64,000 nucleotides of DNA from Candidatus Aenigmatarchaeota archaeon (GTDB lineage Archaea; Aenigmatarchaeota; Aenigmatarchaeia; CG10238-14), in contig JASEGC010000001.1 of NCBI GenBank assembly GCA_030018415.1, positions 407,033 to 471,032 of the forward strand, given 5' to 3'. Positions 793-1,179 of the stretch are shown here, one piece after another. The position numbers and the translations under genes are program-made. Position 1 is the stretch's first letter, and the number at the start of each line of letters is the position of its first letter. The notes under the pieces are model-generated. The model had not been told where the DNA came from and searched no databases. It worked only from the letters and a program-made list of their open reading frames with translations.

Positions 793-895
793 TTATCCCT
801 TCAATTTATTTAAAACTCTCCAGAAGTATTATGTGAGCTAAGAAGTAGAAGTGTTAGGATTAAAAATTCATATGCCTCGGTAGTGCAGTGGTCTA

Positions 896-908
896 ATGAC
901 AAGGCTAA
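896..908 (+). other. putative 13-nt BHB-type intron in the D-loop of tRNA-Asp
   Basis: 4-bp helix GGTC(890..893)/GGCT(903..906, 2 G-U pairs) with a 9-nt loop. Junctions lie 2 nt 3' of each strand (TA|A and AA|A). Removal gives D-arm GTGC-AGTGGTCTA-ACAT. The boundary is ambiguous by 1 nt because of flanking A residues. Confidence 0.5.
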
Positions 909-930
909 ACATACAGGCCTGTCACGCCTG

Positions 931-946
931 TGACCTTTTTGGCGGG
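931..946 (+). other. putative 16-nt BHB-type intron at the anticodon-stem/variable-loop junction of tRNA-Asp
   Basis: 4-bp helix CGCC(925..928)/GGCG(941..944). Junctions lie 2 nt 3' of each strand (TG|T and GG|A). Removal leaves the 4-nt variable loop ATAC before the T-stem. An alternative 15-nt placement does not satisfy the helix rule. Confidence 0.45.
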
Positions 947-1179
947 ATACATGGGTTCAAATCCCATCCGAGGCGTCAATTCTCATAACGTTGTCTGTTA
1001 TGTTTATTTCATCAAACCGATCTCGTCTATGTAAAAATATTTAAGTTTATGCTGAACAATAATAGGGGTATTGATTCACGGTAAAAGCAAGAGGTTAGGA
1101 ATTTATTCTATGAAGACTATATAGTTATGTACATCATTGGATTGTACGGTGTATAGATCCCTTCAGCGTAGGTGATGAC

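Follow-up and report, generated by a model that had tools for sequence, protein, structure and literature searches.

A tRNA-Asp(GUC) gene with two non-canonical mini-introns in a Candidatus Aenigmatarchaeota genome

The window analyzed here is a 64,000-nucleotide (nt) stretch (G000:C8:407033-471032; positions below are counted from its first letter) of a 1.19-Mb genome, G000, which has about 36% G+C, is 89% complete, and belongs to the DPANN phylum Candidatus Aenigmatarchaeota. Near the start of the window lies a 102-nt gene at 874-975 whose exons rebuild a 73-nt tRNA-Asp(GUC) and which holds 29 extra nt; it is a real tRNA-Asp gene with two mini-introns of known archaeal type. The gene is likely functional and apparently the only tRNA-Asp(GUC) gene of G000, and its two introns, at 896-908 and most likely at 933-948, are predicted to be removed by the tRNA splicing endonuclease EndA and the ligase RtcB. 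The first-pass annotation of this DNA had recognized the gene, its acceptor stem, T arm, and anticodon arm, and the 29 additional nucleotides, and had read the latter as two non-canonical introns of the bulge-helix-bulge (BHB) type in the D loop and the variable region. The sequence and the presence of same-site inserts in related genomes bear out this reading, except for the junctions of the second intron, which most likely lie 2 nt downstream of those proposed, that is, at 933-948 (position 45/46) and not at 931-946.

The exons contain all the parts of an intact tRNA. The acceptor stem GCCTCGG (874-880) / CCGAGGC (968-974) forms seven of seven Watson-Crick pairs, followed by the discriminator G975, and no CCA is encoded at the 3' end. 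The anticodon arm (CAGGC-CTGTCAC-GCCTG, 914-930) bears the anticodon GTC at 921-923 and C38 at 925, and the T arm reads ATGGG-TTCAAAT-CCCAT (951-967). Identity elements of tRNA-Asp include G73, the GUC anticodon, C38, and G10:U25, all of which are present in the window exons. The D loop, AGTGGTCTA, is identical in the uninterrupted tRNA-Asp genes of relatives. Removal of 896-908 leaves a D stem with G10:U25 and a C13:A22 mismatch, to which the first-pass annotation had already drawn attention; since 13:22 is likewise non-Watson-Crick in the tRNA-Asp of relatives (U:G or U:U), the mismatch is normal for this tRNA family. When the inserts are deleted, a cloverleaf with intact anticodon arm, T arm, and acceptor stem is restored in both candidate registers of the second intron. 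The spliced exons are 79-89% identical to the spliced or uninterrupted tRNA-Asp of relatives, in which the extra segments are variable in length or absent while the exons are conserved.

Standard tools do not recognize the unspliced gene, as neither ARAGORN nor Rfam at its gathering threshold reported a tRNA at 874-975. In E-value mode, the Rfam score was 27.8 bits, below the cut-off of 29 (E = 6e-4, 291 nt searched). The first-pass annotation had allowed for a covariance-model fold that accounts for the extra nucleotides as something other than introns; the Rfam model does so in part, in that the second insert can be absorbed as a variable-region insertion, but its alignment misplaces the acceptor, starting at 885 with a mismatched stem, and was rejected given the perfect 874-880/968-974 pairing. 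The intron option of ARAGORN returned a “tRNA-Ile(aat)” in which the true anticodon arm is read as a 22-nt intron, and this was also rejected, as the best stem-loop is lost and no relative supports it. By contrast, the 73-nt product is called tRNA-Asp(gtc) by ARAGORN when both segments of the first-pass annotation are deleted, and likewise when 933-948 is deleted as the second intron.

The first intron is one of a series of inserts at the same D-loop site. Its comparative series was collected over 371 genomes of the phylum with a pattern that specified the 5' strand of the helix, an AA just ahead of the 3' cut, and the spacing to the anticodon loop, leaving the 3' strand of the helix free. Same-site inserts of 13-32 nt are present in the tRNA-Asp of 22 of these genomes, and the insert is absent from the tRNA-Asp of many relatives. 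Among the 16 distinct sequences, the 3' strand pairs with GGYC in 98% of cells, compared with 19-52% for 3' partners slid by 1-3 columns, and helix position 3 covaries (C:G, U:A, U:G). A 13-nt insert at the identical D-loop place is found in G057, G060, and their kin (GGCCTA^ATGGAAAGGCTAA^GCATA, carets marking the cuts). Both the 896-908 boundaries and the rule of cutting 2 nt past each helix strand, from which the first-pass annotation had derived them, agree with this series: the 5' cut falls 2 nt past 893 and the 3' cut 2 nt past 906. Owing to the flanking A residues, three cut registers yield one and the same mature sequence. The 28-32 nt D-loop introns of relatives have a proper inner helix, unlike the 13-nt versions, that of the window included. 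In the latter, the 5' “bulge” belongs to the hairpin loop. Measured against the strict hBHBh' form (h and h' of at least 2 bp each), intron 1 of the window gene lacks a contiguous outer helix and has no inner pair beyond a possible U897:A902. The motif of intron 1 is a relaxed one, of the bulge-helix-loop (BHL) kind.

For the variable region, a pattern in which just the anticodon loop and the T loop were required, separated by 20-50 free bases, gave matches in 15 genomes of the order. Ten relatives and the window gene share one architecture and G027 and G070 are of another type, with G078 and G051 left out of the series, since the G078 insert lies at 37/38 or 38/39 and the G051 match is not a tRNA. 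The shared architecture consists of stem 39-43, NG^A, an inner helix, four bases that pair with nt 40-43, A(A/T)^AC, and the T stem; in the ten other genomes, the insert is 13-31 nt long. The eleven genes were aligned with columns set solely by distance from the anticodon loop and the T stem. In the 45/46 register, 96% of the cells of the BHB are paired and six of the seven pairs change on both sides, a result reached by 0 of 500 shuffles, and slid controls are paired in 27-42% of cells. The window bulges UG^A and AU^A fit the consensus NG^A and A(A/U)^A of the ten relatives. Cutting in this register leaves a mature variable loop of UGAC, as in G001, G002, G057, G060, and G065, NGAC being conserved in relatives. 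The insert is absent from the genus-mates G001 and G002 as well as from the closest homologs in G057 and G060. With a 2-bp inner helix and a single outer pair, G926:C950, intron 2 also departs from the strict hBHBh' form and is HBh'-like.

The genome encodes enzymes that may carry out the splicing. A single EndA gene was found in G000 (G000:C8, about 371810-372352, minus strand), encoding a protein of 180 aa with N and C domains (PF02778 + PF01974), the best structural relative of which is the alpha4 enzyme of Methanocaldococcus jannaschii. Compared with the M. jannaschii EndA (1A79), it contains a 6-residue insert, KLKKGPKAAFEH, which aligns without gaps to the Nanoarchaeum equitans EndA (3IEY). 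Judging from its position, this insert may be the C-terminal “L3” loop that Kaneta et al. (2018, PMC5829648) describe for alpha4-type DPANN EndAs and link to heavy disruption of tRNA genes. An RtcB ligase gene is located outside the window (G000:C8:108399-109742, minus strand) and is matched end to end by the Pfam model with 518 bits. The RtcB match holds two in-frame stops, one TAG and one TAA, which may be further mini-introns or assembly errors.

In the proposed pathway, 874-975 would be transcribed as a 102-nt precursor, from which EndA would remove the two mini-introns before RtcB joins the exons; transcription, cleavage at these phosphates, ligation, and function are all steps that we infer. 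Intron 1 would be presented on the 4-bp helix GGUC/GGCU, with cuts in the hairpin loop (5') and in the AA^A internal loop (3'). Intron 2 would be presented on a BHB in which the 3' strand of the anticodon stem, CCUG (nt 40-43), pairs with CGGG near the 3' end of the intron, with 3-nt bulges and a 2-bp inner helix. Every cut would fall 2 nt 3' of a central-helix strand, giving the predicted exon junctions GGUCUA^ACAUA and GCCUGUG^ACAUGGG, and the 73-nt product, GCCUCGGUAGUGCAGUGGUCUAACAUACAGGCCUGUCACGCCUGUGACAUGGGUUCAAAUCCCAUCCGAGGCG, would then gain CCA. The coordinates of the gene parts and of the neighboring features are collected in Table 1.

Table 1. Features of the tRNA-Asp(GUC) gene and its surroundings (window positions; carets mark cuts, and the introns of the full gene are in brackets).
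Feature	Position	Strand	Basis or sequence
Full gene	874-975	+	GCCTCGG TA GTGC AGTGGTCTA[ATGACAAGGCTAA]ACAT A CAGGC CTGTCAC GCCTG TG[ACCTTTTTGGCGGGAT]AC ATGGG TTCAAAT CCCAT CCGAGGC G
Exon 1: acceptor 5' strand 874-880, U8 A9, D-stem 5' strand GUGC 883-886, D loop AGUGGUCUA 887-895	874..895	+	sequence
Intron 1: 13 nt, ATGACAAGGCTAA, D-loop/D-stem junction (~21/22), relaxed bulge-helix-loop	896..908	+	same-site inserts in relatives; helix pairing
Intron 1 splice motif: helix GGUC (890-893) / GGCU (903-906), two G-U pairs; only possible inner pair U897:A902	890..906	+	sequence; covariation at helix position 3
Exon 2: D-stem 3' strand ACAU 909-912, A26, anticodon arm 914-930, variable-loop U44 G45 931-932	909..932	+	sequence
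Intron 2, best-supported junctions: 16 nt, ACCTTTTTGGCGGGAT, at 45/46 within the variable loop	933..948	+	ten relatives' inserts; covariation
Intron 2 splice motif: outer G926:C950; central CCUG (927-930) / CGGG (943-946); bulges UG^A (931-933), AU^A (947-949); inner CC (934-935) / GG (941-942), U5 loop	926..950	+	sequence; covariation
Exon 3: A46 C48 949-950, T arm 951-967, acceptor 3' strand 968-974, discriminator G975	949..975	+	sequence; Rfam T-arm alignment
rpoH (RNA polymerase subunit H/Rpb5), then rpoB''	1180..1425	+	Pfam PF01191, E = 1.9e-29; synteny with G001, G002, G057, G060, G065
LAGLIDADG homing-endonuclease gene, divergent from the tRNA gene	1..691	-	frameshifted in the assembly near 320-341; tblastn vs 245-aa G043 protein
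55-aa open reading frame, weak MazE/AbrB-like match	625..792	+	Pfam PF04014, E = 6e-4, below curated cut-off; overlaps endonuclease N-terminal region on the other strand

Several points weigh against this interpretation. The motif of intron 1 is weak, with two G-U pairs, as had been remarked in the first pass, nearly no inner helix, and no clean outer helix. EndA enzymes of the alpha4 type are classically strict, and the presumed broad specificity of the G000 enzyme is deduced from its loop insert. For intron 2, the competing junctions are those originally proposed, 931-946 at 43/44, with the helix CGCC (925-928) / GGCG (941-944), bulges UG^U and GG^A, the exon junction GCCUG^AUACAUGGG, and a variable loop of AUAC. 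The insert is real and this helix is present in the sequence; moreover, the minimum-energy precursor fold contains its four G-C pairs, the two registers are not told apart by constrained energies (-26.5 versus -25.0 kcal/mol, the 931-946 register being slightly better), and exactly the same CGCC/GGCG helix carries a 43/44 intron, directly after the stem, in G027 and G070. The covariation counts that favor 933-948 come from kin, mostly of one family, and overstate the number of independent events, and the assembly may hold homopolymer errors, which at the T5 run of intron 2 would affect the loop alone and not the junctions. On the eleven-gene alignment, however, the CGCC/GGCG helix is paired in 59% of cells versus 55% after shuffling, without excess covariation, and the loop AUAC departs from the NGAC of nearly all relatives, which even the 43/44 introns of G027 and G070 leave behind. 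The 3' bulge GG^A is also unlike the A(A/U/G)^N seen in the relatives' splice motifs inspected by eye, and the inner helix of the 931-946 register consists of just a G-U and an A-U pair and its outer helix of one A-U pair. Because the family consensus favors 933-948, while the minimum-energy fold uses the other helix and the energies do not discriminate, we hold 933-948 to be strongly favored and 931-946 to be quite unlikely.

It is far less likely still that the inserts are not spliced at all, the gene being either a decaying pseudogene or the source of an RNA whose D loop is enlarged and whose variable arm is long. The rejection of the gene by ARAGORN and by Rfam at its gathering threshold, and the ability of the Rfam model to take up the second insert, would agree with this explanation, as would the presence in the same segment of an endonuclease gene that is possibly degenerate; with 11% of the genome missing, another tRNA-Asp could exist. 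Yet the exon stems and identity positions are all intact, the position of each insert matches a helix-plus-2 motif exactly, these motifs being conserved or covarying in relatives, and we know of no precedent for a 22-nt D loop. In addition, most of the approximately 40 tRNA-like genes in G000 exceed the length of an uninterrupted tRNA, and splicing enzymes are encoded. No second tRNA-Asp was found in the 89%-complete assembly by pattern search or by a scan for acceptor stems and T arms that ignores introns. The latter scan replaced a loose regular-expression search for further GUC anticodon arms, which had returned 247 meaningless hits.

The tRNA-Asp gene occupies a conserved place in the genome. 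The order tRNA, 5S rRNA, tRNA-Asp, rpoH, rpoB'' is common to G000, its genus-mates, and other families of the order (G001, G002, G057, G060, and G065), and the window gene is therefore the positional ortholog of the relatives' tRNA-Asp, on account of this slot between 5S rRNA and rpoH-rpoB''. BLAST of the whole precursor against relatives had matched mostly T arms of other tRNAs and was set aside, and the 73-nt exons are too short for an informative phylogeny. The genus-mates' tRNA-Asp differs in its acceptor stem and is interrupted once, by a 23-nt intron at 24/25 with the helix CTAT/GTAG and the inner helix AGTA/TACT; counting the genus-mates, nine genomes of the family to which G000 belongs have an intron at 24/25. 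G000 is the only searched genome with both the 21/22 and the 45/46 intron. Beyond these, the tRNA-Asp genes at L057 (G037), L061 (G094), and L084 (G049) each carry three inserts, in the D loop, in the anticodon stem or loop, and at 45/46, and tRNA-Asp is therefore an intron hot spot across the order.

The difference in intron content between G000 and its genus-mates goes together with a difference in the surrounding DNA. From the end of the 5S rRNA to the ribosome-binding site of rpoH, G000 has 1.17 kb (about window -5 to 1167) versus 170 nt, with the other tRNA-Asp allele, in G001 (blastn), and the extra DNA comprises a LAGLIDADG endonuclease gene on the opposite strand, a small MazE/AbrB-like open reading frame, and the tRNA gene. 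Across its C-terminal half, the endonuclease is 57% identical to a 245-aa protein of G043 by tblastn, with the motif YLAGIIDGDGD, and this G043 homolog has weak Pfam LAGLIDADG matches. A 72-aa open reading frame at 290-508 aligns with the N-terminal half of the endonuclease. The endonuclease family occurs in 20 of the 118 genomes of the order, 18 of them among the 70 genomes of the sister family f2, plus G027; in G000's own family, none of the 22 other genomes has it. In 22 of 29 loci, a tRNA-like or 5S gene is found no more than 260 nt from the endonuclease gene, for which chance would give about 4% by a rough estimate. Copies in the same 5S/tRNA-Asp spacer were found in G043, G049, and G027, and this site is occupied in three families; this spacer is 883-884 nt long in G000, G043, and G027, compared with 7-74 nt where the endonuclease gene is missing. 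The same-spacer copies are the closest relatives of the G000 endonuclease (54-57% identity), and all four endonuclease-positive tRNA-Asp alleles have a variable-region intron.

These observations raise the question of whether the allele was imported. Collaborative homing, in which free-standing endonucleases and introns spread together, has been shown in phages. A comparable route would be that the two-intron allele came with the neighboring LAGLIDADG gene by gene conversion from another Aenigmatarchaeota lineage, the endonuclease family targeting tRNA genes and BHB mini-introns spreading by collaborative homing; this is a tentative idea, which we consider rather unlikely. The spliced exons of G000 are 89% identical to those of G065, a member of family f2, and 79.5% identical to those of G001. 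However, the value of 79.5% is no outlier by itself, because the conserved spacer with the 5S rRNA is also just about 78% identical between G000 and its genus-mate. Recent import from a specific donor could not be demonstrated, given that the closest endonuclease copies are only 54-57% identical and the spacer about 78%. The divergences are old, and arrival of the allele with the endonuclease gene fits the data as a lead, not a finding.

Other insert-bearing RNA genes were noticed close by and elsewhere in the genome. The 5S rRNA gene lies just upstream of the window (G000:C8:406886-407022; L063 2387-2523; Rfam 67.9 bits) and contains a 22-nt insert, AAGATATGATACATCTGAGGAT, at C8:406924-406945 (window -108 to -87), which G001 does not have. 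The insert has full BHB geometry, with the helix UCUC/GAGG, bulges AU^A and AU^U, and the inner helix AGAU/AUCU, and without it the 5S rRNA is 115 nt long and collinear with that of G001. It is a candidate for an intron that is spliced from 5S rRNA; “5S rRNA intron” as a phrase was not found in the eight best-ranked papers of a literature search. In G065, the 5S rRNA match (L050 1330-1461) is 132 nt, about 15 nt longer than in other relatives, and may also hold an insert. Upstream of the 5S rRNA gene, about 230 nt before the window start, there is a 134-nt tRNA-like gene (G000:C8:406667-406800, plus strand) with apparently several inserts and a possible GTA (Tyr) anticodon, and a homologous long gene is present at the same place in relatives. 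On contig C14, a 153-nt tRNA-like gene (reverse strand, position 14280) has an insert of about 80 nt with box C/D-like words (ATGATGA ... CTGA-like), reminiscent of the C/D-box guide RNA that euryarchaeal tRNA-Trp carries in its intron.

Overall, non-canonical BHB mini-introns and position 45/46 are already known, and what is new is another example, in the tRNA-Asp of an Aenigmatarchaeota genome. The only tRNA-Asp found in G000 escapes ARAGORN as well as Rfam at the curated threshold, and automatic annotation would consequently report tRNA-Asp as lacking. Multi-intron tRNAs are sparsely recorded from DPANN archaea with a single alpha4-like endonuclease, and the window gene adds a further, well-documented case. 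The comparative series, with 22 genomes for 21/22, 11 for 45/46 (the ten relatives and G000), two for 43/44, and nine for 24/25, supports two intron sites within a single tRNA at the scale of a phylum, and does so independently of the motif. Within one genus, syntenic tRNA-Asp orthologs carry wholly different intron sets, and the divergent allele accompanies a tRNA-associated homing-endonuclease gene. A preprint on Asgard tRNA introns states of such introns that “how they arrive remains open” (2026, doi 10.64898/2026.10.13.758758). If true, endonuclease-linked spread would be one concrete arrival route for archaeal tRNA introns.

Multi-intron tRNA genes with non-canonical BHB introns are said to have been described by Sugahara in 2007 and 2008 from Crenarchaeota, chiefly Thermoproteales. 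The window gene resembles them in having two short introns outside 37/38 in one gene, with a 4-bp helix and cuts 2 nt 3' of its strands, and in that intron position differs among orthologs, which points to turnover. For these organisms, 45/46 and 20/21 or 22/23 are already listed as non-canonical intron positions, 45/46 being a classical one (Yoshihisa, 2014, PMC4090602). Unlike the Thermoproteales systems, the window lineage belongs to DPANN and not to TACK, and its introns, of 13 and 16 nt, are very small. Methanopyrus kandleri offers another acidic-amino-acid tRNA whose D arm holds an intron with a relaxed motif: the HBh' intron of its pre-tRNA-Glu(UUC) was shown by RNA-seq to be removed in vivo (PMC5829648); there, by contrast, the gene has a single intron, and the enzyme is an (alpha-beta)2 form without a specificity loop in another lineage. 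The same survey reports that, in several DPANN lineages, disruption of tRNA genes is markedly increased where the alpha4 enzyme bears L3, and that prediction misses some of the tRNAs in such genomes (PMC5829648). G000 fits both statements, and its 6-residue insert aligns gap-free with N. equitans EndA; as a survey, however, that work does not describe the window gene, nor, as far as its accessible part goes, Aenigmatarchaeota tRNA-Asp introns.

A parallel for relaxed motifs within DPANN is provided by ARMAN-2 (Ca. Micrarchaeum), whose pre-tRNAs with relaxed BHB or BHL introns are cleaved in vitro by its epsilon2 endonuclease (PMC3239211; PMC12397907), cleavage of a BHL substrate having been shown biochemically for pre-tRNA-Cys. 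In ARMAN-2, the epsilon2 enzyme consists of three units and has an ASL loop of its own, unlike the predicted 180-aa alpha4-like enzyme of G000, which has a different, C-terminal insert. What the two share is a DPANN host with heavily disrupted tRNA genes and with BHL mini-introns like intron 1 of the window gene.

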